The notes beneath the pieces are model-generated. The model ran no database searches, was not told the DNA's origin, and saw nothing but the letters and a program-made list of their open reading frames with translations. The position numbers were made by a program, and so were the translations under genes. Shown here piece after piece: positions 708 through 32,000 of a stretch of DNA of 32,000 nt. Source of the stretch: Caedibacter taeniospiralis (GTDB lineage Bacteria > Pseudomonadota > Gammaproteobacteria > Francisellales > Francisellaceae); NCBI RefSeq assembly GCF_002803295.2, contig NZ_PGGB02000007.1, positions 9,365 to 41,364 on the forward strand. The letters run 5' to 3'. How positions within the stretch are numbered: position 1 is the stretch's first letter; each line of letters opens with the position of its first letter.

Positions 708-774
708 CTAAGTGTTCAACCTCAAATTTAAACTAAGCGTCATTGTAACAAACCACCTCGTAAGCGAAAATGCT

Positions 775-877
775 GGCTTAGGCAAATAATTCGCCCAAGT
801 GTGCCAGTGTGAGTAATCAGTGTCACACTCACAGCGACAACTCACACTTAGTGATGGGCAGAAATGTAGTCATTGCC
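775..877. mobile_element. MITE-like palindromic element, copy 1 (103 bp), between the mlaA stop and the nhaP start
   Basis: GGCTTAGGCAAATAATTCGCCCAAG...GTGTGAGTAATCAGTGTCACACTCACA...CTCACACTTAGTGATGGGC...GTCATTGCC. It aligns along its whole length with 5041-5149 and 31265-31365. Flanks are AAAATGCT (767-774) and AAAATGGC (878-885), 6 of 8 identical. Internal stems include AGTGTGAG/CTCACACT. Confidence 0.8.
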
Positions 878-891
878 AAAATGGCACTGCC

Positions 892-3670: not shown

Positions 3671-6487
3671 ATGCAGTTTGATGAATTTTGCCAAAGCTTT
3701 GAGTTGACACACTTAGATATAAAAGTTTCAGCAAAATTATTGAATACTTTTAACACCAGCTGCTTTTTTGCTCGTTTTATCCAACAACATCCCCAGCTTC
3801 TCAAGCATACCGATTGGTTTCTCATTGATGACATCAGTGTTTTGCAACAAGAAATTAAAGCTCTTTTTGCACAGAGCAAAAGTTATGATGAGCTTGCAAA
3901 GACTTTACGCAACTATCGCCAACAAGTGCATGCCAAACTTGTGTTCCAACAGCATCATAAGATTGCCAACTTTGAGACTATTGCCGAGACTATTTCTGCT
4001 ATAGCAAAGCATATTTTATTTTACGCACAACAATATTTATTAAAAAAACTAAGTGAAACTAAAACCCTCCATAAACTCCCGCAAGATCTCGGTATCATCA
4101 CCATGGGAAAGCTCGGTGGAAATGAGCTTAACTTCTCTTCTGATATTGACCTTGTGTTCATCCAGGTAAATAACGACCCATTGACAGACCACCTTGGTAA
4201 AACCTATAGCGCCATGCGTTTTTATACTGAGCTTGGTCAAAAGCTTATTGCCTTACTTAATGAAACGACAATCGATGGATTTGTTTATCGAGTTGATATG
4301 CGTTTGCGTCCCTTTGGTGAGGGCGCACCTTTAGTCATCGATATAGAAAGCTTTAAACATTATCTTATGAATCATGCGCGAGCTTGGGAGCGCTATGCTT
4401 ATATTAAAGGCGACATTTTACATCCATCTCATCAGGTTAAAGAGATATTAGATCACATGATCAAGCAGTTTGTTTATCGCCATTACCATGACTATCGCAT
4501 GCTGAATGCTATTCGTGAGATGAAACAAAAAATCTTATCCGAAATGAAACAGGTAAACTTAACAGACAACATAAAATTAGGTCGTGGTGGCATTCGTGAA
4601 ATCGAGTTTATCTGTCAATGCTATCAGTTGATTTATGGCGGTCAAAATATCACTTTGCAACATCGTAAGCTAAAACAAGCACTGCGTTCATTAACCCATG
4701 CTGAGGTTATTTCTGTCGATACTCAAAAATATCTCTATCAGCACTATGTTTTTTTGCGCAACGTTGAAAATGCCCTGCAAATGTTTGATGATCAACAAAC
4801 GCATCAGCTGCCAAGCAGCAAGCACACACAGAACGCCATCGCCTGCTTATGCGGTTTTGATGACTGGCAAATGCTTATCACACAAATCACCCAGACAAGG
4901 GAAAAAGTGGCAGGGCTTTTTGACAAACTCACCCGCTTTAACCTCCATAACGTTGAGCAAATGCAAGACTCAGCAATCTCTGCCACCTTGATGACGGACA
5001 ACACTCTCCCCGCCTGCGCTTATAATCATACGGAAATTAAGGCTTGTACAAATAATTCGCCCAAGCGTATCGGTGTGAGTAATCAGTGTCACACTCACAC
5101 TCACACTCACAACTCACACTTAGCAATTGGCGGAAATATAGTCACTGCCGAAATTAACAACTTCTTTGCTGAACATATCCTTGCTCAAGAAGTTCTACCC
5201 GCTATTGAAGACTTAATTAACCTGTGTGTAGAGCGCTATCCACAGCTTTTAACCAATCTACTAAAGCTGCTGCATAACTTGAGCAAACGACAAACTTATT
5301 TATTTTTGTTCCTTGAATATCGCTCACATCATCTGGATTTTTTGACCTTACTCAATCAAGGCGCACGAATCGTAGAAATACTAACGGAACACCCGTTTTT
5401 ACTTGAGCGCGCATTCATATACAAACACCATGACGAAGTCTATATCGATATTGCTTATCTTCGCAGCAAACTGTACAGACACCTCCAAGCTATTAACCTT
5501 GAGGATGTCGAGGCTTTCTTAGAATGTTTGCGTCGATTTAAGCTTGAACAGATATTTAACATTATCGTCAGTGAATCACAAGGGCACATATCCTTAATGG
5601 AAGCCAGTGATTTATTCAGTCATCTGGCAACCGTTTTAATTGAAATTGCCCTTGATGGAGCATGGCGTGAGATTTTTCGATATGTCGATATAACATCCGA
5701 TCTACAGCAAGCTTATCGAGACTCTCTAGCGGTCATTGCCTATGGCAAACTTGGCGGGCTTGAGCTCAGTGTTGCCTCTGACTTGGATCTGGTGTTTATT
5801 CATGATAAAACCCATACGGAATTATCCTCACGCTTTTTTGTGCGCGCTGTGCAAAAATTTGTCCATTTTATGCAAATTAAAACCTATCACGGCGCCCTGT
5901 ACGATATTGATTTACGCCTGCGTCCTGAGGGAGATAATGGTTTTATTGCCCCAGGTTTTGATCGCTATGAGGAATATCTTTATCACTCTGCCTGGACTTG
6001 GGAGCACCAGGCATTAACACGCGCACGCTTCATTTGTGGAGCCTCCCGTATTCAACAGAAATTTGATCAACTGCGTACTCAAGTTTTGTGTCAATCTCGT
6101 GCGCTTCCCGCGCTCAAAAAAGATATTCGTGAGATGCGCCAAAAAATGCGCACTCATCTACTTAAAGCTCCTTCGCATCTATTTGATTTAAAACAAAGCC
6201 CAGGTGCTATGGTGGATATTGAGTTTATTGCCCAGTTTTTTGCGCTTTATTATAGCCATAAAGTTCCTGCAATAGGTTACTACAGCGACAGTATTCGCAT
6301 TATCCAAACCATCGAATCTGCACAGTTACTTGATACTAAAACGGCAAACGTGCTGATTGATAACTATTGCTATTACCGTGATTTAGGGTTTAAATGCTAC
6401 CTTCGCAAACAAGAAGCCGTTGTTCCCTTAGATACTTGTAAACAGAGAATGTTAGAAGTACAGGAAATATGGAGCAATCTATTTTAG
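3671..6487 (+). CDS. glnE: Bifunctional glutamine synthetase adenylyltransferase/adenylyl-removing enzyme, carrying a 39-codon in-frame repeat insertion
   Basis: 938 aa with two nucleotidyltransferase modules: GKLGGNELNFSSDIDLVF at ~4100 and GKLGGLELSVASDLDLVF at ~5750. Each is followed by Y.VD.RLRP.G. This is the GlnE architecture. Confidence 0.9.
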   Translation: MQFDEFCQSFELTHLDIKVSAKLLNTFNTSCFFARFIQQHPQLLKHTDWFLIDDISVLQQEIKALFAQSKSYDELAKTLRNYRQQVHAKLVFQQHHKIANFETIAETISAIAKHILFYAQQYLLKKLSETKTLHKLPQDLGIITMGKLGGNELNFSSDIDLVFIQVNNDPLTDHLGKTYSAMRFYTELGQKLIALLNETTIDGFVYRVDMRLRPFGEGAPLVIDIESFKHYLMNHARAWERYAYIKGDILHPSHQVKEILDHMIKQFVYRHYHDYRMLNAIREMKQKILSEMKQVNLTDNIKLGRGGIREIEFICQCYQLIYGGQNITLQHRKLKQALRSLTHAEVISVDTQKYLYQHYVFLRNVENALQMFDDQQTHQLPSSKHTQNAIACLCGFDDWQMLITQITQTREKVAGLFDKLTRFNLHNVEQMQDSAISATLMTDNTLPACAYNHTEIKACTNNSPKRIGVSNQCHTHTHTHNSHLAIGGNIVTAEINNFFAEHILAQEVLPAIEDLINLCVERYPQLLTNLLKLLHNLSKRQTYLFLFLEYRSHHLDFLTLLNQGARIVEILTEHPFLLERAFIYKHHDEVYIDIAYLRSKLYRHLQAINLEDVEAFLECLRRFKLEQIFNIIVSESQGHISLMEASDLFSHLATVLIEIALDGAWREIFRYVDITSDLQQAYRDSLAVIAYGKLGGLELSVASDLDLVFIHDKTHTELSSRFFVRAVQKFVHFMQIKTYHGALYDIDLRLRPEGDNGFIAPGFDRYEEYLYHSAWTWEHQALTRARFICGASRIQQKFDQLRTQVLCQSRALPALKKDIREMRQKMRTHLLKAPSHLFDLKQSPGAMVDIEFIAQFFALYYSHKVPAIGYYSDSIRIIQTIESAQLLDTKTANVLIDNYCYYRDLGFKCYLRKQEAVVPLDTCKQRMLEVQEIWSNLF
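5041..5149. mobile_element. MITE-like palindromic element, copy 2 (109 bp), inside the glnE reading frame
   Basis: Same element as 775-877 and 31265-31365. It is flanked by a perfect 8-bp direct repeat GAAATTAA (5033-5040 and 5150-5157). It translates in the glnE frame as KACTNNSPKRIGVSNQCHTHTHTHNSHLAIGGNIVTAEI. Confidence 0.85.
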
Positions 6488-17649: not shown

Positions 17650-18123
17650 TTATTTACGCCATAACCTTGCATCGACTAAAAAGGGAAGCTGTTCAACGCT
17701 CTTCACAACCTGACTAAATTTCTCATGTTCAGGATTTAGTAAGTAATTCCATTCCCTGGGGACAACCGCACTTGGCACTGCAAGCACCATGCTTTGACAG
17801 GATCTAAGCCAGTCATCACCCAAAGCAGCGGTTTCAGGTGGAGCAGGCTGATCTTGCCAGCATTTGGGTAGATGTTCTCGATCAACATACTGAATTTCTG
17901 ATTGTGGCAATTTAACTTGCAATAGTGTGTAATTTTGCAGTAAGGAATAATCTTCTAGATGGACGAAAATTTCTAAAATAGCAAGTGATTCAGAGCTTGC
18001 TACATATACACATGGCATGCCTTTACTATTCCATCTGCCTCCATATAGTTTTGCACCATCGCCAGTAAAAGCATTACTCAGCCATTTGGTTTTAACTAAC
18101 CTATACGCATAAACAGTACTCAC
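17650..18123 (-). CDS. RES-domain toxin (NAD+-targeting RES family)
   Basis: 157 aa. It has YGGRWNSKGMPCVYVASSESLAILE (R...E...S signature). The GTG start overlaps the upstream antitoxin stop (GTGA). Confidence 0.85.
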   Translation of the reverse strand: MSTVYAYRLVKTKWLSNAFTGDGAKLYGGRWNSKGMPCVYVASSESLAILEIFVHLEDYSLLQNYTLLQVKLPQSEIQYVDREHLPKCWQDQPAPPETAALGDDWLRSCQSMVLAVPSAVVPREWNYLLNPEHEKFSQVVKSVEQLPFLVDARLWRK

Positions 18124-18548
18124 GCAAAAACACCATGCTCAAGGCGCCCAATTAAATCTAAAACAGCTTCGGTTTCCGCTGATGTCCTTAACATCTCCAC
18201 AGGGCGTTTTCCGCCTAAGCCAGCAACAGAGGTTTGCAGCCAACTTTTTGCTTTTTCATTATGACCTTCAAATAAGTCCAGCGTCGCTTTGTATACTTCA
18301 GCGTAGCGATATAACCTATCACTTTCTGCTTCTGTGAAGAACCCAGATTTAAATCTTCTATTAAGAGATGCTGATGGAATGGTGGTGATTTCTGCCAGTT
18401 GTTTCTTCTCAAGACCAGAAATGACCGCAAGCTTGCTAAAAACATCGCAGCTAAAGCCATTGTGTATCGCTTGATATAAATCCTGACCACGGGAAGGCAT
18501 GCCGACAAATGCCCAAAAATCGCCTTGCTTTACTGATGTTGCTATCAT
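18120..18548 (-). CDS. Xre-like antitoxin with a DUF2384 (ParS/MbcA-type) C-terminal domain
   Basis: ATG at 18548 preceded by GGAG (tggagtttataATG). It has LAEITTIPSASLNRR...LTEAESDRLYRYAEVYKATLDLFEG...AKSWL...GLGGKRPVEMLRTSAETEAVLDLIGRLEHGVFA, which is typical of DUF2384. The track start at 18656 would run into the MNT gene. Confidence 0.8.
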   Translation of the reverse strand: MIATSVKQGDFWAFVGMPSRGQDLYQAIHNGFSCDVFSKLAVISGLEKKQLAEITTIPSASLNRRFKSGFFTEAESDRLYRYAEVYKATLDLFEGHNEKAKSWLQTSVAGLGGKRPVEMLRTSAETEAVLDLIGRLEHGVFA

Positions 18549-18561
18549 TATAAACTCCACA

Positions 18562-18594
18562 ATCATATGATATATCAAAATAATATCATATGAT
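18562..18594. promoter_or_regulatory. Two copies of the 10-bp palindrome ATCATATGAT, 23 bp centre to centre; candidate operator of the Xre/RES cassette
   Basis: ATCATATGAT occurs at 18562-18571 and 18585-18594, starting 14 nt upstream of the antitoxin ATG. Confidence 0.5.
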
Positions 18595-18609
18595 TTTATA
18601 AATACCAAC

Positions 18610-18936
18610 TTAGCACTTGCTTTGATTCCAATAAAAAAGCTGACCACACTGATCAATATGCTCTAAAAGCGCCAGATTACTAATCGTATGATAGTTACAT
18701 AAATCGATTAAATAAGGGGTGTTTAACGAATCCAATTCTTGAGAGACTCTATCCAGTATTTCTTGATTGATATTTTGTCCTTTTAACACCAGATCAATAT
18801 CTGATCCTGCTCTTTCTTTATTCATTGCACGTGATCCGTAGATAATTACTTGCTCTACTTCAGGAAACTGGGTAAAGACATTAGCAAAAATATTTATCAG
18901 GCTCTGCGCCAGACCAAACTTTACTGGTTCTGTCAT
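18610..18936 (-). CDS. Minimal nucleotidyltransferase (MNT, HI0073-like) antitoxin
   Basis: 108 aa. It has IYGSRAMNKERAGSDIDLVL (the GS-x10-DxD NTase motif) and ...PYLIDLCNY...LLEHIDQCGQLFY. ATGA overlap with the upstream HEPN gene. Confidence 0.85.
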   Translation of the reverse strand: MTEPVKFGLAQSLINIFANVFTQFPEVEQVIIYGSRAMNKERAGSDIDLVLKGQNINQEILDRVSQELDSLNTPYLIDLCNYHTISNLALLEHIDQCGQLFYWNQSKC

Positions 18937-19343
18937 AACTTTAAACTCATCGTTTGCGCCAATTGCTCAAAACAAAGGAGATAAATATCATGAACTTTAG
19001 TGAATTCTTGCTGTAATAAATTTATATCATAAGTATGTACAGTTCGATTGCGACTTTCTATCATATCCATCCATATCTGCCCTTCTTTAATTAAGCCAAG
19101 ATTAAATGCCAGTCGAGTTGCACTTCGTGAACCAGTAATATTCTGATGACCTTCAAATTCCAAAAAATCTTTAAGTACTTTCCAAGCCAGCTCATGTGTG
19201 AACTCAAAGCGCTGAAGCACCCCTTCTTTAACTATATCTGGAGCGCTATCATCATAATCTTGTATTGCTTGGCGTAACTGCGCTAACGCTTTTCGATAAT
19301 TAGAAAAACGCTGTTGCCAACGTATATTTTCTTTATAACTCAT
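18933..19343 (-). CDS. HEPN-domain protein, HI0074-family nucleotidyltransferase substrate-binding protein (toxin)
   Basis: It has QRFEFTHELAWKVLKDFLEFEG and ESRNRTVHTYD (the Rx4-6H HEPN motif). The ATG at 19343 overlaps the eamA TGA by 1 nt (TGATG); the track start at 19346 is a TTG. Confidence 0.85.
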   Translation of the reverse strand: MSYKENIRWQQRFSNYRKALAQLRQAIQDYDDSAPDIVKEGVLQRFEFTHELAWKVLKDFLEFEGHQNITGSRSATRLAFNLGLIKEGQIWMDMIESRNRTVHTYDINLLQQEFTKVHDIYLLCFEQLAQTMSLKL

Positions 19344-20242
19344 CAAACTCTCCCACTTAGTATTGAAACTTTTCTTCGCTTAACGTAACGCAAAATAGGC
19401 TCAATCGCAATTGATGATAGAATCAATACACATGCAAAAATCATATTTATGCTGATATGATCTCCCATAATGATGACACCAAATAGACTCCCAAATAATG
19501 GCACCAAATAATTAGATAATGAGCAAAATCCTGCCCCCGCACGCTTGATTAAACTGACATATAGCACATAAACCAGACCTGAGCAGAATACCCCAAGCGA
19601 CAATGAAGCAAGAAATGGAGATATTGAAAAGTGAATATTTGATAGCGAACCGTTGCTTGAGTTAATAACGCACATGACAATACTGCCCACAATAAACGCA
19701 TCGCGTGATAGTACAAAAGAATCCTCCTGCGGCAAACTACGAATCACAATAAGGGCTAAGGCAAATGACAAAGCTCCCATCAAAATGGCTATTTGTGGCA
19801 TGTATGACATGGATAATCCGTTGCGTAAATCTGGAAGAAATAAAACGATAAGACCTGCAAATCCCACAAGTACACTAAGAAATTTAACACCTGTTGCACG
19901 CTCAACTCCCGTTAAAAGCATCAGAACAATCGTGAAAAATGGAATAGTTCCCATTAAAATCGATGCCATACTCCCTGAAACAAATTGCTGCCCCCACATT
20001 ATCAAAACAAACGGGATAACAACCTCAAGCAGTCCAATGATAATTACTTTTAACCAGCTCAGGAGATCTCTTTTTGCATATTTTCTTCTGGTTATAAGAC
20101 AAAATATAATCAAGAAAACTGCGGCATAGAAGGTTCTAAGAAAAGATAACTGCTCAGGTGTGTATGTAGACAAAGATAAATCAATCAGAATAAATTGCCC
20201 GCCCCAAATCAGTCCGATAATGAGTAATAGCAGGTAGTTCAT
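19343..20242 (-). CDS. EamA/DMT-superfamily transporter
   Basis: 299 aa with ~10 TM segments and a duplicated EamA-like layout. It starts only 15 nt downstream of the greA stop. Confidence 0.8.
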   Translation of the reverse strand: MNYLLLLIIGLIWGGQFILIDLSLSTYTPEQLSFLRTFYAAVFLIIFCLITRRKYAKRDLLSWLKVIIIGLLEVVIPFVLIMWGQQFVSGSMASILMGTIPFFTIVLMLLTGVERATGVKFLSVLVGFAGLIVLFLPDLRNGLSMSYMPQIAILMGALSFALALIVIRSLPQEDSFVLSRDAFIVGSIVMCVINSSNGSLSNIHFSISPFLASLSLGVFCSGLVYVLYVSLIKRAGAGFCSLSNYLVPLFGSLFGVIIMGDHISINMIFACVLILSSIAIEPILRYVKRRKVSILSGRV

Positions 20243-23984: not shown

Positions 23985-24103
23985 AGAATTTTGGGGTTAT
24001 CTATAGCAACTCCAAGTCTTCTGAAAAATCACTCAAAGTAACAAAAGTGTAAATATTCAGACCCTCCACCTATTGAATGCGCCCCACGCAAGATCATTTT
24101 TTT

Positions 24104-24131
24104 CTTGAAATCTATTTCTCAAGCCTTATTT
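24104..24131 (+). promoter_or_regulatory. Sigma32-type heat-shock promoter candidate for the ibpA-like gene
   Basis: CTTGAAA (24104-24110), a 13-nt spacer, then CCTTATTT (24124-24131). It lies ~100 nt upstream of the ATG at 24234. Confidence 0.5.
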
Positions 24132-24208
24132 ATCTCCACGTAATACGCCAAGAGGGTATTACGCAACGTGCTAAGTCGCAGACTTATCGGCTTAGTTCTT
24201 CACATAAA

Positions 24209-24226
24209 ACTTGCTAAATTAGGAGT
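24209..24226 (+). promoter_or_regulatory. ROSE-like RNA-thermometer candidate masking the ibpA Shine-Dalgarno
   Basis: ACUUGCU-AAAUU-AGGAGU. The UUGCU motif (24211-24215) can pair with the SD AGGAG (24221-24225) leaving one bulged G. An upstream 8-bp hairpin CGTAATAC/GTATTACG (24139-24163) lies in the same leader. Confidence 0.4.
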
Positions 24227-24233
24227 AAAAATT

Positions 24234-24668
24234 ATGAACACATTAGACGCACTCGTAAGAAATGCCATCGGCTTTGATCGCTTATTCGCTTTGGCTGAGA
24301 CAGGCAAGCCAACAAGCTATCCCCCTTATAACATTGAGGTTTTAAGTGAGCACGATTACCTGATCAGCATGGCGATTGCTGGATTTAAAGAATCTGAGAT
24401 TGACATTACCGTGCACCAGGGGAAACTCACAGTTACTGGCAACAAAGCGGATGATAACAAAGAACGTAAGTTTATCCATCGTGGCATTGCTGAGCGCTCA
24501 TTTACCCATACTTTCGAGCTTGCTGATCACATTGAAGTCAAAAGTGCACACTTTGAAAATGGTATTTTAAACATAGGCTTAGTCAAAGAAATCCCCGAGG
24601 CAATGCAGCCAAAGAAAATTAAAATAAACACCATGACTTCGTCAAAAACGATTGAGCAGGCAGAGTAA
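24234..24668 (+). CDS. ibpA: Small heat-shock protein, IbpA/Hsp20 family
   Basis: 144 aa from the ATG at 24234, preceded by AGGAG. It has NAIGFDRLF...YPPYNIE...Y.I..A.AGF......I....G.L.V.G, matching the IbpA pattern. The track start at 24168 has no support. Confidence 0.9.
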   Translation: MNTLDALVRNAIGFDRLFALAETGKPTSYPPYNIEVLSEHDYLISMAIAGFKESEIDITVHQGKLTVTGNKADDNKERKFIHRGIAERSFTHTFELADHIEVKSAHFENGILNIGLVKEIPEAMQPKKIKINTMTSSKTIEQAE

Positions 24669-24694
24669 GTTGCTTAAACACTGAAGTTACGCAA

Positions 24695-25447
24695 TCAATG
24701 CCTTTCAACTAACTTCCAGGCTTGTTCTTTGTACGACAAGGCTGCTTCAGCTGGTTTGTATGCGGCATAAATCCCACGTCCTACAATAATAATATCTGAC
24801 TTTTTCTCACCAATAACATACTCAGGGGTATTATAATTTTGTCCTAGCCCATCCCCTTTAGCATCAAAATTCACCCCTGGCGTCATCGTAATGAGATCAT
24901 TATCCTGAGTTAATTTTTCCTGAGCGATAAAGCCGATGATAAAATCCTTATTTTTTTCAGCTTCACTTACTGTTTTTGCGGTATATTCAGGGCTAAATAA
25001 ATTGCCTTTACTACTCATTTGCGCCAACAGCAATAGTCCGATATCGCGTCCCTTACACCCTTCTTTTAAGCCATCAATAATGCCCACACCAGGCAAAAGA
25101 TGGGCATTGATAATGTCTGCCCATTCAGCAATATGATAAATGCCATCTCTGACCTGGTGACAAACGGTATTACCGATGTCGGCAAACTTACGATCTTCAA
25201 AAATCAAAAATCCCGCCTCATCAGCAAGTTTGCGTAAACGCTGTGTTAATAGTGAAGTAAAATCAGTAACAATATCAATGTGGGTTTTCAAAACAGCGAT
25301 ATGATCCGCCGTTTGCTCAACAAGGCGAATTAACGCCTCACTATCGGTCACATCAGCTGACAAGGCCAGATTGGTTTTTTTACTGGTAACGATATGGTGT
25401 AATTTCTCTGTAACAGGGTGATGGGATTTAGAAAAAGAAAGCTGCAT
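24695..25447 (-). CDS. pyrF: Orotidine-5'-phosphate decarboxylase, eukaryote-like (URA3-type) subfamily
   Basis: It has KKTNLALSADV, LKTHIDIVTDF, FLIFEDRKFADIGNTV, IAEWADIINAH, LLLLAQMSSKGNL, DFIIGFIAQ and IIIVGRGI. It is collinear with yeast URA3 as I recall it. I prefer the ATG at 25447; the track start at 25465 is a TTG. Confidence 0.9.
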   Translation of the reverse strand: MQLSFSKSHHPVTEKLHHIVTSKKTNLALSADVTDSEALIRLVEQTADHIAVLKTHIDIVTDFTSLLTQRLRKLADEAGFLIFEDRKFADIGNTVCHQVRDGIYHIAEWADIINAHLLPGVGIIDGLKEGCKGRDIGLLLLAQMSSKGNLFSPEYTAKTVSEAEKNKDFIIGFIAQEKLTQDNDLITMTPGVNFDAKGDGLGQNYNTPEYVIGEKKSDIIIVGRGIYAAYKPAEAALSYKEQAWKLVERH

Positions 25448-25654
25448 ATTGCTCAAATCCTTCAATGACGATTTGAGCGCGAACTATAGCATAGTTGTTA
25501 TTGCAGGTCTATGCTGGACTTGCTGCATACACGACTAGAGTTGACAAGGGCGTTTCTATTGATGCTGAAGTTTAAAAGATCTCAACTAAGACACACAATG
25601 TTTCGCTCTGGTAGAGTAAGCCCAAAATGTTTATTGTTATTGCCGTTTTGTCAA

Positions 25655-27844
25655 TCAATTATTTGGCAGGCTGAAGTAGGGATTAGGGTTGCCTGTAGAG
25701 TTAAATTGGATAGTATTTGCTGAATTATCACCAAATTGCAACGATTGATAATTATTGTATTGGCAGTTACCACCCATTTGTGAGACGCATTGCAAGGCAA
25801 AATCCCAGGTAATCTGATCGTGTCCATCGACGTCATGCGCTTGAGATGCGAGGTTAAATACGCCCAGATATCCATCGGGAAAGGCAATAGACTGATAGGT
25901 GCTGTATTGATACGCTCCGCTATGCGAATGGACAAAGGCATTGGAGTCAACGGTCATGGGATAGCCACAACCGCCACCACTTTGACAGAGTCCTGAATCA
26001 AGGGCTGCAATCCATGGGGAAGATGACCATCCTCCAAAGCCTTGTTGATTAAGCGTGAAATCATTATCACTGCCCTTGAAGCTGATCTCAAAATATTTGA
26101 CATATTGTGGCGAACCAACGGGTGAGTATCCATAGTGTTGATTGTAGTCATAGGGTTGTAACTGGCTGGTCATGCCGTTGTAAGTCATGTAGTATGACAG
26201 AGCGGTATCTTGTGCAGCCCTTAAATTTAAGTCGAACGAATCACATGAAGCCTTGAGCGTGCCGTTGCCATATTGTCCTGTAAAAGGATTACTGACTACC
26301 CCCTGCCAAGTAAAGACATTACATTTTTGCGTCCATGGATATGCGTTACAAGTCGTGGCTCCATTTACGCATAAATTGTCGGTTTGTGCTGGAGGCATAT
26401 TAGCTTGTACCTTGGCATATTGTGGCTGATAGTTAGCAGCATAGGCATAAGAGTATTGTGGCAAACCAGTGTCTGACCAATCGCTTGGGTAGCTTGCCGT
26501 AGCATTAAAATCATCACTGATAAGATAAGACGAAGTAACATCGAAAATACCAGGAGCCCCTGTTAGGTTATTGTTTGAATCTCTGGATCCCATGATAAGA
26601 TTCTCAAAATATTGATTAATGACCGCCTGCTGGTTGGCAAAAGAACCAGTCGCCCCTTCAATGGGCGAGACCAAATCCTCAAAACCTGCGACATTGGCTT
26701 GCAGATAAGCCGCTGTAAGAAGGATGTTATAGGTTTGCTGGATTGAAACCAAAGAGCTCATATAAATATTCATCAGGCTCTCATTGTAGCCATTAATAAA
26801 TTGAACAGGGTCTGTGCCCATGCCGTAATTACTGGCAACAAATTGCGCTTTCATTTGTTCATTTAATGAATTGACAAATGTGTAATAAAAGCCATCTTTT
26901 GAATCTGTGCTGGTTAAGTCACGAATATTATCGGCTAGACTTGCCAAATAGCTGTTTGTCAGCAAGGCTTGCAGTTGAGCCTGTGCCTCTGTATTCGTAC
27001 TTAAATCAGACAAGCTATGAATATTTACTGTGGCGTTAGTAAACTGATCCCACTGGGTTTGAATCCCAGTAGCTAGCATCTTTGCCTCTACCGCGTAATT
27101 TGTCGATTGATCAGCAAGAACCTGATTGTAAAGTGCTGCAAATCCACCAAGTAATTCATTGAGATCGTTTTGAATGGTGGCAAGATCAGCCAGCGCCTCG
27201 TTCATCTCACTATTGAGCTGATTTAAGTCGCTTTCAATTGCTGCACTAGGGGAGCTGGGATTAATGCCAAACTTCTTAGCTATTTCAGAAGTTGCCCAAT
27301 CCATAGTCTTGCCCACCGCCCAATCCACAAGACCATCAACGACAGGACCGTTTGGTGGAGTTGTTGTCTTTTCAGCTGACAAAGGTGACAATTTACTTAA
27401 CTGTTTAAGATCCGTAGCTTGCAATCGCCCATCTAAGGAAAAACTCACGCTAAATTGATCCTTGGCCGATTGAGGTTGAGCTAACTGACCATAGATTTCA
27501 AGCCCTGCTGTGGTTGTTCCAGAAACAGTAATCATATCGTCATTAAATGCAATATGATCAGGGATGATAGTCGCTTGTGAATTGCGACGAGCCACTTCCA
27601 GGTTTTTGCGCCACAATAACGTTTTGCCATTTTTTGCATCTACAGCGACGACAAATCCTGCGGTTTTCCCTTTGGGCTTGATTCCGCCAAATGCCTCGTG
27701 CAGTGTGCCTGTAAAATAGCCTGCAAGATAAATTGTATGGTCTTTGATTGCCATCGCTGTTACGTGAATGGCGCGACTATTATCAAGCGCTAAGCTCACC
27801 TGCCAGTCAATGGCAGAATGATATATCAAAACTCTCAGGCTCAA
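25655..27844 (-). CDS. Orphan 729-codon ORF, probably 5'-truncated, with beta-propeller-like, helical Q/N-rich and Cys/aromatic-rich parts
   Basis: This is a long open frame in AT-rich DNA. The first possible start is a TTG (27844) with no SD, an in-frame stop lies 5 codons upstream, and the first ATG is at 27754. There is no signal peptide. All 8 Cys fall in the last ~250 aa. I recognise no family. Confidence 0.55.
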   Translation of the reverse strand: MSLRVLIYHSAIDWQVSLALDNSRAIHVTAMAIKDHTIYLAGYFTGTLHEAFGGIKPKGKTAGFVVAVDAKNGKTLLWRKNLEVARRNSQATIIPDHIAFNDDMITVSGTTTAGLEIYGQLAQPQSAKDQFSVSFSLDGRLQATDLKQLSKLSPLSAEKTTTPPNGPVVDGLVDWAVGKTMDWATSEIAKKFGINPSSPSAAIESDLNQLNSEMNEALADLATIQNDLNELLGGFAALYNQVLADQSTNYAVEAKMLATGIQTQWDQFTNATVNIHSLSDLSTNTEAQAQLQALLTNSYLASLADNIRDLTSTDSKDGFYYTFVNSLNEQMKAQFVASNYGMGTDPVQFINGYNESLMNIYMSSLVSIQQTYNILLTAAYLQANVAGFEDLVSPIEGATGSFANQQAVINQYFENLIMGSRDSNNNLTGAPGIFDVTSSYLISDDFNATASYPSDWSDTGLPQYSYAYAANYQPQYAKVQANMPPAQTDNLCVNGATTCNAYPWTQKCNVFTWQGVVSNPFTGQYGNGTLKASCDSFDLNLRAAQDTALSYYMTYNGMTSQLQPYDYNQHYGYSPVGSPQYVKYFEISFKGSDNDFTLNQQGFGGWSSSPWIAALDSGLCQSGGGCGYPMTVDSNAFVHSHSGAYQYSTYQSIAFPDGYLGVFNLASQAHDVDGHDQITWDFALQCVSQMGGNCQYNNYQSLQFGDNSANTIQFNSTGNPNPYFSLPNN

Positions 27845-28040
27845 GTACCAACGAATGAATCACTGAACCTAACAACATATCAGGCGTTTGTACCATCGGT
27901 TCCTTACGCAAGAACAAATGCGGATTATCTAACAATAACTTAACCTGTGAAGCTGACAACGCCTCATGTGCAAGATAAGCATCATGAGTCATTTTGTTTA
28001 TTTTTCCTATTTTACCTGTTTTTTCTATTGTAGCTTTCAT
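27807..28040 (-). pseudogene. N-terminal fragment of a RecE-like PD-(D/E)XK (DUF3799-type) nuclease gene
   Basis: AGGAG-N7-ATG at 28040. MTHDAYLAHEALSASQVKLLLDNPHLFL...MLLGSVIHSLVLEPESFD matches the N-terminal pattern of this family (EYHA..aiSsS.LK.l..sP..f......G...H..iLEP..F). It stops after 77 codons, before any catalytic D/E-K motif. Confidence 0.55.
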
Positions 28041-28135
28041 GCGATTGCTCCTTTTTGTCGAGTAGACATTTCTGTTTCTCCTATTTATATTTGTTTATAT
28101 TCAATACAATGTGAAGACGCACAATGCCCCTCACA

Positions 28136-28168
28136 GAACCGTACTTGTAGATTTCCCACATACGGCTC
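28136..28168 (-). ncRNA. Group II intron catalytic domain V
   Basis: GAGCCGUAUGUGGGAAAUCUACAAGUACGGUUC. It has the AGC triad, a lower helix GAGCCGUAU/GUACGGUUC identical to the classic yeast ai5-gamma DV as I recall it, a 2-nt AA bulge and a GAAA-type loop. Confidence 0.85.
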
Positions 28169-28179
28169 TTCAACTTAAC

Positions 28180-29514
28180 TCACAGCGCTACCAACGTGTA
28201 AAATATGTGATTGATTCGTGGTCGCGGTAACGGATGGCGCTCTACATATTTATTAAAGTCCCACCAGTTCATTTTCCGCTTCTGGCTTCTTCGATTTAAC
28301 CACTTCAGCGTCTGTCTCATGGCTATCGAATAATACTTCGCTATCGAGGGGTAGTTTCCACTCACTCCGTAATATTCAAAATGCCCTCTTAGCTTCGCTT
28401 TCAGTATTTTCCACCACTCTTTTGTCGGGAGTACATTCCTAATCGATTTCAGCCACAAGTTCAAATCTTTGCACTTGGCTCGAAACTTCTTAGCGCTCGT
28501 TTTCCGACCCAGTTTGAAATACCCCTTTCTTGTCTTATCACAAAAATGGGTAAATCCTAGAAAATCAAACGTATTCGCCTTGCGTCCAGCATTCAAAGCA
28601 TTCAGCTTCTCAAACCGTCCAAAGCTTATGTTCCGACTCTTCTCTGGATGAAGCTGTAGTTCATGCTTGTTAAATCTATTCGCCAATGCCCGCTCAATCT
28701 TGCGGGCATCTTCCTGATACTGTATCAAGCACACAAAGTCATCTGCATACCTCACCAGCCTGCAAAATCCTTCAACGTGCTGCTTTACCGTATCTTCAAA
28801 CCATTTATCTAATACATAATGCAAAAATATATTCGCCAACATCGGACTTAATATACTCCCTTGTGGCGTACCTTTCTCCGTGTCGATCAATACCCCTTTA
28901 TCTATGTACCCCGCCCTTAAAAAGCAGTCTATCAGATGTAGCAAACTCGTATCCTTCACCCGTATCTTCACAAAGTCCTTCAGTTTCTCGTGCGATACGT
29001 TATCGAAGAACCCCTTTATATCCGCTTCCACCAAATGGTTCACAGGTTGGGTCATGATCGCCTTATCGACTTCATTTAACGCCTGATGAGTATTCCTTCC
29101 TGGTCTAAACCCATACGAGCATTCCAGAAAGTCCTGTTCATATATGCTTTGCAGAATCAGCATTATACCGCTCTCAACAATCTTGTTCTCAATTGCAGAG
29201 ATACCTAACGGGCGGCTTTCACCATTTCCTTTAGGGATATATACCCTTCTACTTGGCATTGGCTTAAATGTCTTGCGCTTTAATCGCATGACCAGATTCT
29301 CTATCTTATCCGCTACGTCCACGCCATATTCTTGCCAACTTACTTTGTCTATTCCTACCGCCTTGTTTCTATCAAGTCCATAGTAGCAATAGCTGAGAAA
29401 CTCCGCGTCAAGTAAATGAGCCAGGCTCGTAAACTCAAAACTTCGATTCCCTCGCGCGCACTCTGCTATAGAAGACAACTTCAACAATGTTTTATTCAAC
29501 TCTGCGTTTGACAT
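28180..29514 (-). CDS. Group II intron reverse transcriptase/maturase (no endonuclease domain)
   Basis: RT blocks are present, including RPLGISAIENKIV, GTPQGSILSPMLANIFL and RYADDFV (YADD), plus an X/maturase region FLGF...RGHFEYYGVSGN. It ends without an HNH/En domain. The ATG is at 29514; the track start at 29517 is a GTG. Confidence 0.9.
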   Translation of the reverse strand: MSNAELNKTLLKLSSIAECARGNRSFEFTSLAHLLDAEFLSYCYYGLDRNKAVGIDKVSWQEYGVDVADKIENLVMRLKRKTFKPMPSRRVYIPKGNGESRPLGISAIENKIVESGIMLILQSIYEQDFLECSYGFRPGRNTHQALNEVDKAIMTQPVNHLVEADIKGFFDNVSHEKLKDFVKIRVKDTSLLHLIDCFLRAGYIDKGVLIDTEKGTPQGSILSPMLANIFLHYVLDKWFEDTVKQHVEGFCRLVRYADDFVCLIQYQEDARKIERALANRFNKHELQLHPEKSRNISFGRFEKLNALNAGRKANTFDFLGFTHFCDKTRKGYFKLGRKTSAKKFRAKCKDLNLWLKSIRNVLPTKEWWKILKAKLRGHFEYYGVSGNYPSIAKYYSIAMRQTLKWLNRRSQKRKMNWWDFNKYVERHPLPRPRINHIFYTLVAL

Positions 29515-30200
29515 CACTCAAACTATCCTCTTGCGTTAAATTGCCAGCCCCTTCGAGTGGATTAGCCTCTGACCCTTCTCAGAGCTTCAATCTATCCTCG
29601 ATAGGCATTACCCTACCTACTCCTCTACTACGAACCAGTCCGACTACCTTGCTAAACCATCACCTCGTTTCTTCAACTTGCATGACAGCATTCAGAAATA
29701 GCAAGGTTCTCCCAAGTTCCAAAACAATCAGTTCATCTACCCGCTACGGACTCAGACCCCGACACCTCCGCGCATACTCGCCTGTTTACTTTGGGTTGTG
29801 CCAAACTTTTTTAAAAAAAAAAAAAAAACACATGCTCTAGTTTCGTATACAGCAGTTCTGATTTCAGGCAAATGAAAACCCTGATCAGGTGTGACGTTGA
29901 TTTATTACGGGGCTCAATACCTTCACTTGCGTTGTGGCTGATAGACCGCCCTTGCTACAGCTTCATACGCTGCGAGCCATGGACCTATGTGTAGTTCGGT
30001 TCCAGACCGGTGGCTAACCTTTATCTGGGCTGGATTGTCCAGCTTGATTGCCTTAGCTTTGCTTGGCGCACTCATAATTTTCTCCTGGGTTTGATTGATA
30101 ATTAACGTTTAGTTGTGTGGATGATAATGCCTTCAAAACGATCACATAAGAGCAAAATTTGGTCAATTGTGATAAAAATTACCATTGCTTATTTTTAACC

Positions 30201-31184
30201 TTAAACAATTATTGTTCCATTGCTCACATCCTGTCGCCAACAGCTGAGCATGAATTTTTCTACGTCTAAATAGCGCCCTTGTGATATGACAAAGGTATCC
30301 AAATTCCGCTCTATTTCCCAATTTTTGAGGACTTGTACCAGGGGGACTGTCTGCATATCGGTCAAACTAACAAGTCCGTTATCTAACATGGCAAACCCTA
30401 AATGCTGCCTTATAAGCTCACTCACCGATAAGTGCATTGACACCCGTGCTATCAAATTCAGCTGTACCGTTTTATGTTGATTGTCTTGTGAAAAGGTAAT
30501 CATCCCAGTTTCAAAAGGAGTCGCAATATAATCTAAATGGCGCAGATCTTCTGGCTGTTCAATCGGGTGACCTAAGGTGTCTAAAAAGCTTTGACTGCAA
30601 TATAGACCAAACTTTCCCTGCAAAGTAATCACTACTTTCCATTTGTCTTGATCAATTAAGTGGAGATTTTTTCTAGGCATCATTAATAAATCAAAGCTTT
30701 GTGCCAGACCCCTGATATGTGAACCAAAGCGTTCAAACATCGCAGGTGTGATCATTGTAATGTCAAAAATAATGTTGGGGAACTGAGTACGCAACGGAGC
30801 GAGCATGTACTTCACAAAGTAATGGTAAGACAAAGGAAACACGCCCATTTTGTAGGTGATTTTATCTCCAAAATTGTATAGGGTATCGACGTCTATATCC
30901 AGTTGTTCAATTTTAGGATAAATGGTTGCATATAGGCGTTGCCCAAACTCTGTTAATACAATTCCTTTGATACCACTGTCGTCTGAAATGATTTTTTGAT
31001 TAAAGGCAGACTCTAGCGTACGAATATACTCCCTGGCTGTTTTGATATTTACATTGAGCTTTTCCGCTGCACTCTTACGCGTTCCAAGTTTAACAAGTTC
31101 AGAAAAGTAAACCAGCTCGCGAGAGTAGCGAAAAATATCAATTTTGGATGCGCTCATTGCCAAATTTTCCCTGTTGTGAATCAT
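30201..31184 (-). CDS. LysR-family transcriptional regulator
   Basis: It has an N-terminal wHTH (LVYFSELVKLGTRKSAAEKLNVNIKTAREYIRTLESAFNQKI...LTEFGQRLY) and a ~200-aa substrate-binding-like C-terminal part. An alternative ATG lies at 31157. Confidence 0.8.
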   Translation of the reverse strand: MIHNRENLAMSASKIDIFRYSRELVYFSELVKLGTRKSAAEKLNVNIKTAREYIRTLESAFNQKIISDDSGIKGIVLTEFGQRLYATIYPKIEQLDIDVDTLYNFGDKITYKMGVFPLSYHYFVKYMLAPLRTQFPNIIFDITMITPAMFERFGSHIRGLAQSFDLLMMPRKNLHLIDQDKWKVVITLQGKFGLYCSQSFLDTLGHPIEQPEDLRHLDYIATPFETGMITFSQDNQHKTVQLNLIARVSMHLSVSELIRQHLGFAMLDNGLVSLTDMQTVPLVQVLKNWEIERNLDTFVISQGRYLDVEKFMLSCWRQDVSNGTIIV

Positions 31185-31264
31185 AACAGTGAGAGATATA
31201 GCTCAAAGCTTTAAGATTTACAAGTCAAGTCAAAGCATAATAGGGCGCATTTCAGAGAAATCTT

Positions 31265-31365
31265 GGCTTGTGCAAATAATTCGCCCAAGCGTGTCGGTGT
31301 GAGTAATCAGTGTCCGTCACACTGACAACTCACAATTAGTGATGGGCGTCAATATAGTCATCACC
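31265..31365. mobile_element. MITE-like palindromic element, copy 3 (101 bp), upstream of the lysR start
   Basis: Same element as copies 1 and 2. It is flanked by a perfect 8-bp direct repeat GAAATCTT (31257-31264 and 31366-31373). Confidence 0.85.
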
Positions 31366-31537
31366 GAAATCTTCCATTACAAAATGGTCGTTTATTAGCA
31401 AAAATTTGGTAAATGTTATAAGAAGCTCTTTTATCAAAATGGCGCACAGATGCACTGGCAATTTCCTCCCAAGATCGCTACCATGTCCCAAAGCTTCTAT
31501 TTTACGTGGCATCACCTATGGCTAAGAAAATTTATAA

Positions 31538-32000
31538 AGGACGGATGAGTTATTATATGAATGCCGGGTGAAACTGCCTAATATCGAAATTGTGCATCTG
31601 CTAAATTACTACTTCAAAATCTGGTTTAACACGCGCTTAGGTGTGCAATATCAATCGTTTTTAAATAATCTGGTCGAAGGCAAGGTAGAGAAGTTCAGTG
31701 AGCAATTAAATACTTATCTCACCGAAGCCTTAAGTGTCAGAGACACGGGTTACACCGCCGAGAAGTTTTATCACGGATTAGTTTTGGGTTTGATTGCCTC
31801 ATTAAGAGCGACGCATCTTATCCACTCCAATCGTGAATCAGGGGATGGTTATCCCGATGTGCTTATTTATCCTTTGGCAAATAATCAAAAGCACGATTTA
31901 GGCATTGTGATGGAATTTAAGCATGCCAGGGAAGATGGCAGCGAAAACCTGGAGAAACTCGCCAAGCAAGCGTTAAGCCAGATTGAGCAAAAAAATTATG
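31538..32000 (+). pseudogene. 3' fragment of an AAA-ATPase-like/PD-(D/E)XK (DUF1703-type) gene; open to the window end, no start codon
   Basis: Absent from the ORF track. The frame is open from 31538, after a TAA at 31535. My translation is ...VKLPNIEIVHLLNYYFKIWF...FYHGLVLGLIASLRATHLIHSNRESGDGYPDVLIYPL...LGIVMEFKHAR...ALSQIEQKNY. The pattern (PN.EV, FYHG..LGL, SNRESG.G..D, hhhE.K) matches the C-terminal nuclease domain of this family. The expected upstream ~350 aa are missing. Confidence 0.55.

Follow-up and report, generated by a model that had tools for sequence, protein, structure and literature searches.

A 729-codon reading frame of Caedibacter taeniospiralis is probably a recently beheaded gene for an exported protein of an unannotated family

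The 32,000-nucleotide stretch of Caedibacter taeniospiralis DNA considered here (contig NZ_PGGB02000007.1, positions 9,365 to 41,364; hereafter the window) carries on its minus strand an open reading frame (ORF) of 729 codons, listed at 25655..27844 with a TTG start, for which an earlier note made from the sequence alone could name no family. We regard this ORF – with a probability of roughly 80% – as a chromosomal gene copy, beheaded not long ago, for an 800-residue Sec-exported protein of an unannotated family. A group II intron sits at codon 2 of this gene, together with a captured fragment of an exonuclease VIII (exoVIII) gene, a disruption that the earlier note had overlooked. In all likelihood the window copy is a young pseudogene, in which stops have yet to accumulate.

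The key to this reading is an intact counterpart in a related Caedibacter-like bacterium, whose locus (L001) is 97% identical to the window and holds an intact gene of 800 amino acids (aa). Its product, P0005, was found in the ORF’s own protein cluster – which also contains short fragments titled “hypothetical protein [Caedibacter taeniospiralis]” – and begins with the Sec signal peptide MKKSLKTLSVLVGSSLLLSNLSLA^AEP. The two loci align by blastn in two blocks. The first, window 31711..30072 against L001 1..1640 (99%), ends at the ATGA of the intact gene’s start (1637), and the second matches window 27823..24085 to L001 1874..5609 (97%). Between them lie 2248 bp in the window as against 233 bp in L001, with breakpoints at window positions 30072/30071 and 27824/27823. 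Codons 1-79 of the ancestral gene, including the signal peptide, are absent from the window copy, which bears out the earlier suspicion that an N-terminus and a signal peptide were missing and could be recovered from a full-length homologue, here P0005. Relative to the intact orthologues, both the native start and the targeting signal have been lost. The two TTG codons proposed as starts, 27844 in the ORF listing and 27829 in the public annotation (P0001), lie inside foreign DNA; position 27859 is the upstream end of the stop-free frame and not the start of the ORF.

Most of the additional DNA is the group II intron (Table 1). It opens with GTGCG at 30071, directly after AGGAGAAAATTATGA – the gene’s own ribosome-binding site (RBS) and start – and closes with ...CTACTCGAC at 28057, the terminal dinucleotide being AC. 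Domains 1 to 4 are recognised by Rfam model RF02005 (29747..30038, 72.8 bits, cut-off 49) and domains 5 and 6 by RF00029 (28057..28170, 53.2 bits, cut-off 40). The intron’s reverse transcriptase (RT)/maturase ORF is intact, with 445 aa encoded at 28180..29517 (RVT_1, E 1.7e-32), and has no recognisable endonuclease domain. As regards the pairing of exon-binding site 1 with intron-binding site 1 (EBS1/IBS1), domain 1 is without a complement of TTATGA, and only TTTTCAT near intron nucleotide 194 pairs with ATGA^AAA across the insertion site. Domain 1 contains 16 consecutive T and then six A (29795-29825 on the minus strand, some 250 nt into the intron), an oddity in a structured ribozyme region. 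Neither the window nor the related loci L001-L010 (Caedibacter-like, Methylococcaceae/Desulfatiglandales and metagenomic) contain a second copy of the intron. The intron-exoVIII junction could not be matched exactly to any viral contig; among these contigs related RTs are frequent, but at 45% identity or less.

Between the intron and the retained gene lies the foreign patch, which matches the exonuclease VIII family phrog_412 (E 3.5e-11) and, by tblastn, phage exoVIII genes. It takes the place, in register, of precisely 228 bp of ancestral coding sequence (codons 2-79). When the patch region was compared with its counterpart (window 27824-28056 against L001 1641-1873, including five shared A’s), the patch and the stretch it replaces showed 24% ungapped identity, which is random; the five A’s directly 3' of the intron match the ancestral sequence. 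The patch gives rise to an ORF of its own, 77 codons long (28040..27807), which runs on for 17 bp within the retained gene before it terminates. Splicing from the original start would be predicted to yield the message ATG AAA AAA GGA GCA ATC GCA TGA, with a stop after seven codons. Because the patch replaced codons 2-79 and the spliced frame stops, 721 conserved codons are left with neither a native start nor an export signal. As to where the patch came from, it was possibly acquired through capture of an intron-3'-exon complementary DNA (cDNA) or through repair synthesis templated on another intron copy; should a donor locus with intron-AAAAAGGAGCAATCGCATGAAAGC exist, the patch would be a copied 3' flank of that intron.

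Table 1. Coordinates of the beheaded gene, its inserted elements, its domains and its upstream neighbour (positions in the window)
Feature	Position	Strand	Basis
Group II intron, 2015 bp, sense orientation	28057..30071	-	Rfam, 5' GTGCG, 3' ...CTACTCGAC, RT ORF
Orphaned RBS (AGGAGA) and start (ATG + A) of the ancestral gene, abutting the intron	30072..30086	-	sequence reading, blastn to L001
Foreign patch, 228 bp: 5' end of a RecE-like gene (phage-type exonuclease VIII), with its ATG (28040) and 73 codons	27824..28051	-	phrog_412, tblastn
Retained 3' part: codons 80-800 of the intact orthologue and stop (25655-25657)	25655..27823	-	blastn; 0 internal stops or frameshifts
N-terminal beta-propeller-like domain, start incomplete, ORF residues ~8-150	27395..27823	-	AlphaFold, Foldseek
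Central all-helical domain, ORF residues ~170-448	26501..27337	-	AlphaFold, alignment
C-terminal beta-rich, G/Y/Q/N/S-rich domain with 8/8 Cys, ORF residues ~449-729	25658..26500	-	composition, alignment, weak model
LysR-type regulator, upstream neighbour	30201..31184	-	Pfam HTH_1 and LysR_substrate; synteny in most related loci (L001, L003, L004 and L008)

Orthologues of the ORF were found at 96%, 87% and 50% identity. The allele carried under the name C. taeniospiralis (L002-L004) has the same sequence in three independent samples and is 87% identical to that of L001; deletions of 2 bp and 1 bp, along with a CAA>TAG change, split it into four ORFs. The most distant orthologue, at L008 (50% identical), is intact and 808 aa long, with a LysR gene upstream beyond one intervening ORF. 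Directly downstream of it (L008 5242-8784) lies a gene for a 1180-aa lipoprotein with many propeller repeats of the GGxTW type (BNR/Ycf48-like), which has no counterpart in the window. The 87% and the 50% orthologue share the L001-type N-terminus, and because they do, the idea that this N-terminus is the derived state is contradicted so far. Across the four Caedibacter-like lineages examined, the gene is intact in two and inactivated independently in the other two.

The pairwise ratios of nonsynonymous to synonymous substitution rates (dN/dS) are 0.21, 0.12 and 0.12. Values of this kind, taken from sequence comparison, indicate that the gene has long been under purifying selection, in keeping with the earlier view of a real gene under past selection. 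When the differences between the window and L001 were polarised with L002, 11 synonymous and five nonsynonymous changes fell on the window branch; relaxed selection was not detectable there (Fisher p = 0.39), the 16 polarised changes giving too little power. Long purifying selection together with the lack of decay so far on the window branch therefore makes the truncation a recent one.

To which family, then, would the intact protein belong? The ORF protein has no match in Pfam or in a sequence search of the PDB, and NCBIfam returns noise only, so that the earlier failure to name a family is upheld. Word-indexed homology searches recovered only the gene’s own cluster and fragments, and the family came to light when 1.84 billion representative proteins were scanned exhaustively with HMMER (E <= 0.001, clusters at 50% identity); it comprises 20 clusters only. 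Ten distant clusters that were looked up are titled “hypothetical protein” or nameless, and the sources identified include Pseudoalteromonas byunsanensis and metagenome-assembled genomes (MAGs) of Methylococcaceae and Desulfatiglandales. The family is undescribed and has neither a Pfam nor an NCBIfam model, and this is the main novelty of the work.

Signal peptides, judged by inspection, are of the lipoprotein type in most N-terminally complete members, with lipoboxes (L-x-x-C) in nine relatives (P0009-12, 14, 18, 20, 22 and 23); the gammaproteobacterial members nearest to the window have type I signals (P0005, P0007). Long members (about 800-890 aa) contain all three parts described below, and short ones (about 540-670 aa) begin at the helical part. 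No conserved gene neighbourhood is shared across seven distant loci (L005, L006, L011-L015), and because these have nothing in common the gene is taken to stand alone. Distant members are preceded by 0.9-1.5 kb, an unusual length, without a called gene or listed long ORF (L013 4663-6000, L006 6476-7982, L011 7138-8000), which hints at a long leader or regulatory region.

The architecture of the protein was approached with an AlphaFold model of P0005 built from a 17-sequence family alignment; a model from the single sequence had a pLDDT of 35 and was unusable. The order of secondary structure – beta, helical, beta – agrees with the three-part architecture previously read from the ORF, as does the existence of short members without the N-terminal part. 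Residues 100-220 are modelled as beta (pLDDT 75-91), residues 330-520 as helical (pLDDT 70-90) and the C-terminus at pLDDT 45-70, which makes the model usable for two domains only, the N-terminal and the helical one. The strings that had first drawn attention (AGYFTGTL, GFVVAVDAKNGKTLLW, CVNGATTC, CQSGGGC, CVSQMGGNC and three Y..(I/L).F motifs) were all located in the ORF. In a 19-residue Kyte-Doolittle scan, nothing but the signal peptide exceeds 1.2 in P0005 and the majority of relatives, and no other stretch has the hydrophobicity to span a membrane.

For the N-terminal domain, the best Foldseek match in the PDB is the beta-propeller of CylK (7fh7; E 1.6e-4, 125 columns, root-mean-square deviation (rmsd) 2.6 Å), and matches in BFVD are also of the WD/PQQ type; a propeller-like nature had been proposed for this part from its sequence. 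The domain covers about three blades, and a closed propeller is not formed in the model. Its pattern D..IYLAGYFTG...GFVVAVDAKNGKTLW resembles SBBP blades; Pfam SBBP (PF06739) has no match in the ORF protein or the aligned members. Since short family members lack the domain, it is optional.

The helical domain has a heptad-like QLxxIxxQL stretch and two long helices, H272-331 and H418-456 (60 and 39 residues). It also carries the family signature, GYNESLMNxY...Q..YTIQ.T.YL, whose columns N426, L429, Q441, Y444 and T449 are the only nearly invariant ones of the family. The C-terminal domain is poor in charged residues (K+R+D+E make up 9.6% of the ORF’s C-terminal third), and all eight Cys of the ORF fall within its last 245 residues or so. 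In the family alignment they form conserved pairs, W..C..Y.W.G....C and Q.QC....C, which, along with the Sec or lipoprotein signals of intact relatives, support the earlier description of this C-terminus as extracytoplasmic. A threefold lectin- or crystallin-like repeat, also suggested for this region, did not survive either a shuffle test or the family alignment: unit 1 resembles units 2 and 3 no better than shuffled sequence does, units 2 and 3 share only the 11-residue motif YNxYQS(I/L)xFxD (reached by one of 500 shuffles), and this motif is unconserved in the family. The three Y..(I/L).F motifs fall in unrelated alignment columns.

In architecture, the intact product is a stand-alone exported protein, and the core of its family is an elongated helical domain joined to a Cys-paired beta-rich domain. 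With low confidence, this architecture suggests a family of envelope or surface binding proteins, with beta domains that would engage a ligand or target and a helical domain that would serve as a stalk or effector.

Several observations weigh against the beheading of the gene as a full account. The truncated frame is open throughout its 2.19 kb, and few nonsynonymous changes fall on its branch; neither the helical nor the C-terminal domain matches anything in the PDB by sequence profile; and the exact 228-for-228 bp swap is without explanation. The open frame and the preponderance of synonymous changes would also suit a remnant that still functions in the cytoplasm, translated from an internal TTG (27844 or 27829) or ATG and perhaps coupled to the overlapping 77-codon exoVIII ORF, all the more as GAGAG lies a few bases upstream of TTG 27829 and the native promoter persists intact on the far side of the intron, upstream of it (99% identity). 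Such continued use keeps a small place among the explanations, and we hold it to be distinctly improbable: the signal peptide is gone, yet the conserved pairing of all eight Cys is of a kind expected in an oxidising compartment, the N-terminal domain has been cut short, and the independent pseudogenisation in a sister lineage shows that the gene is dispensable there, while the few polarised changes lack the power to show ongoing constraint. We infer instead that the remnant is probably non-functional, because its Cys-paired C-terminal domain would be unable to reach the periplasm without a signal peptide. That the frame is open by chance or is an annotation artefact, as its lack of a database family name might suggest, is next to impossible given the orthologues with their low dN/dS, the 20 homologous clusters with conserved motifs and the two domains confidently modelled by AlphaFold; the absence of homologues, which the earlier note had named as the mark of a chance ORF, is thus not what was found.

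A different reading concerns what the intact protein does rather than how the window copy was broken: the family, including the intact allele, might consist of secreted or surface-released toxins, the window holding a dead toxin gene. The helical domain would then insert into a membrane, or remodel against one, in the manner of Vip3 or of ClyA/Hbl/Cry6, and receptor binding would fall to the beta domains. This would fit the lack of partner genes (as for many self-sufficient toxins), the patchy spread over distant bacteria, the unidentified killer toxin of the host genus (PMC7297999) and a handful of sub-threshold matches: Vip3A_N (PF12495) to 45 residues of the Desulfatiglandales MAG protein (E 7e-4, 20 bits against a gathering score of 25), Bacillus_HBL (PF05791) in one of 17 members (E 0.0095) and Cry6Aa (5GHE) with the family profile (E 0.057, per-domain i-Evalue 0.14). 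All of these remain below curated cut-offs, and the reported alignments fall in or begin at the QLxxIxxQL stretch, which is itself matched best in the PDB by designed coiled coils. Vip3A_N has no match in the window protein or in 16 of the 17 aligned members, and Endotoxin_N, Endotoxin_M and Endotoxin_C have none in the 17 members at E <= 0.1. Homology to Vip3 was rejected on comparing profiles: hhalign of the family profile against Vip3Aa (its sequence checked against 6TFJ) gives a probability of 0.3% over eight columns. Searched against the PDB, the whole-family profile finds only coiled-coil noise and no Vip3 chain, and the profile of the C-terminal domain has no match there. The Foldseek list from the whole model is dominated by matches to the N-terminal domain, and its top 50 include no Cry or ClyA/Hbl/Nhe/Cry6 structure and only one poor match to the toxin TcdA1 (rmsd 12 Å). 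The Kyte-Doolittle scan reveals no hydrophobic segment that could form a membrane-insertion head, beta-tongue or hairpin. Most members are, moreover, lipoproteins, which is unusual for released toxins, and of the four Caedibacter-like alleles examined, two are broken. The likeness to helical toxins noted earlier thus finds no support on closer comparison, and we consider a toxin family unlikely.

The gene is also a poor candidate for the C. taeniospiralis killer toxin in particular, because it is broken in the allele named after that species and has relatives in free-living bacteria. A broader version of the idea – that the intact form founds a new exported, disulfide-stabilised helical-plus-beta family acting on other cells, whether as toxins or as host-interaction factors – strikes us as quite unlikely. 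Were it true, the state of the allele (intact, beheaded or frameshifted) in Caedibacter-like symbionts would track host interaction or killer phenotype. The gene could be a host-interaction factor in the lineages that keep an intact allele.

The surroundings of the ORF within the window are ordinary chromosomal housekeeping genes (MlaA, GlnE, PurL, FtsJ, MscS, IspD, enolase, ClpB, Hsp20 and PyrF), and the order LysR-gene-pyrF-hsp20-clpB is collinear with the L001 locus. A plasmid origin was considered and rejected, tblastn against 72,556 plasmids giving no match. A scan for promoters and terminators returned counts not above those of shuffled sequence. Between hsp20 and clpB, L001 has about 740 bp (5610-6351) with a DUF4160/DUF2442 gene pair that is lacking in the window (24079-24085), which is a further small indel polymorphism in the region. 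A repeat some 115 bp long is present at two places in the window (768-882 and 5033-5154), with copies 80-83% identical 5' of the LysR gene in related loci (L001 342-455, L003 819-932), and may be a small dispersed element or one resembling a miniature inverted-repeat transposable element (MITE). Small ORFs at 17650-19346, downstream of greA and an EamA gene, are probably toxin-antitoxin pairs (nucleotidyltransferase/HEPN-like and Xre/RES), judged by synteny with a C. taeniospiralis contig.

In practical terms, annotation should mark the 724/729-aa “hypothetical protein” as a pseudogene truncated at its 5' end by a group II intron and a captured phage fragment. The family itself, a rare one of exported proteins and lipoproteins with a clear modular architecture, merits a family model and a structure. 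The same gene, intact in two lineages and inactivated independently in two others of a clade with a Paramecium killer symbiont, offers a compact example of the ongoing loss of envelope or secreted functions. For the biology of mobile introns, the in-register replacement of 228 bp by 228 bp poses a puzzle that may reflect an unusual route of capture or repair, although no long-standing question is yet made directly testable by it or by the family.

Set beside other genes disrupted by group II introns, the window copy has the usual features: canonical domains 1 to 6, a 5' GUGCG, a 3' AC, an RT/maturase ORF and insertion in sense orientation. It differs in that 228 bp of an apparent former 3' flank – the start of the phage exoVIII gene – came with the intron or after it, and in that this flank swaps out 228 bp of the host gene, so that splicing cannot restore the frame. 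Apart from this in-register replacement, the disruption by the intron is ordinary. Compared with beta-propeller proteins such as CylK and those of the SBBP type, the N-terminal domain of P0005 superposes on about three CylK blades, whereas closed propellers have six to eight, and it is an optional accessory in its family. With Vip3, the family shares the plan of a secreted multi-domain protein in which an N-terminal helical region with Q/N/L heptads is followed by beta domains; unlike Vip3, it has no C-terminal domains resembling carbohydrate-binding modules (CBMs), and most of its members carry lipoprotein signal peptides. Toxins of the ClyA type (Hbl, Nhe, Cry6Aa) have a helical domain that is likewise elongated and of about the same size, but the family is without their hydrophobic beta-tongue or head segment, and it has a Cys-paired beta domain of about 280 residues and often a propeller-like domain, both lacking in the ClyA-type toxins.

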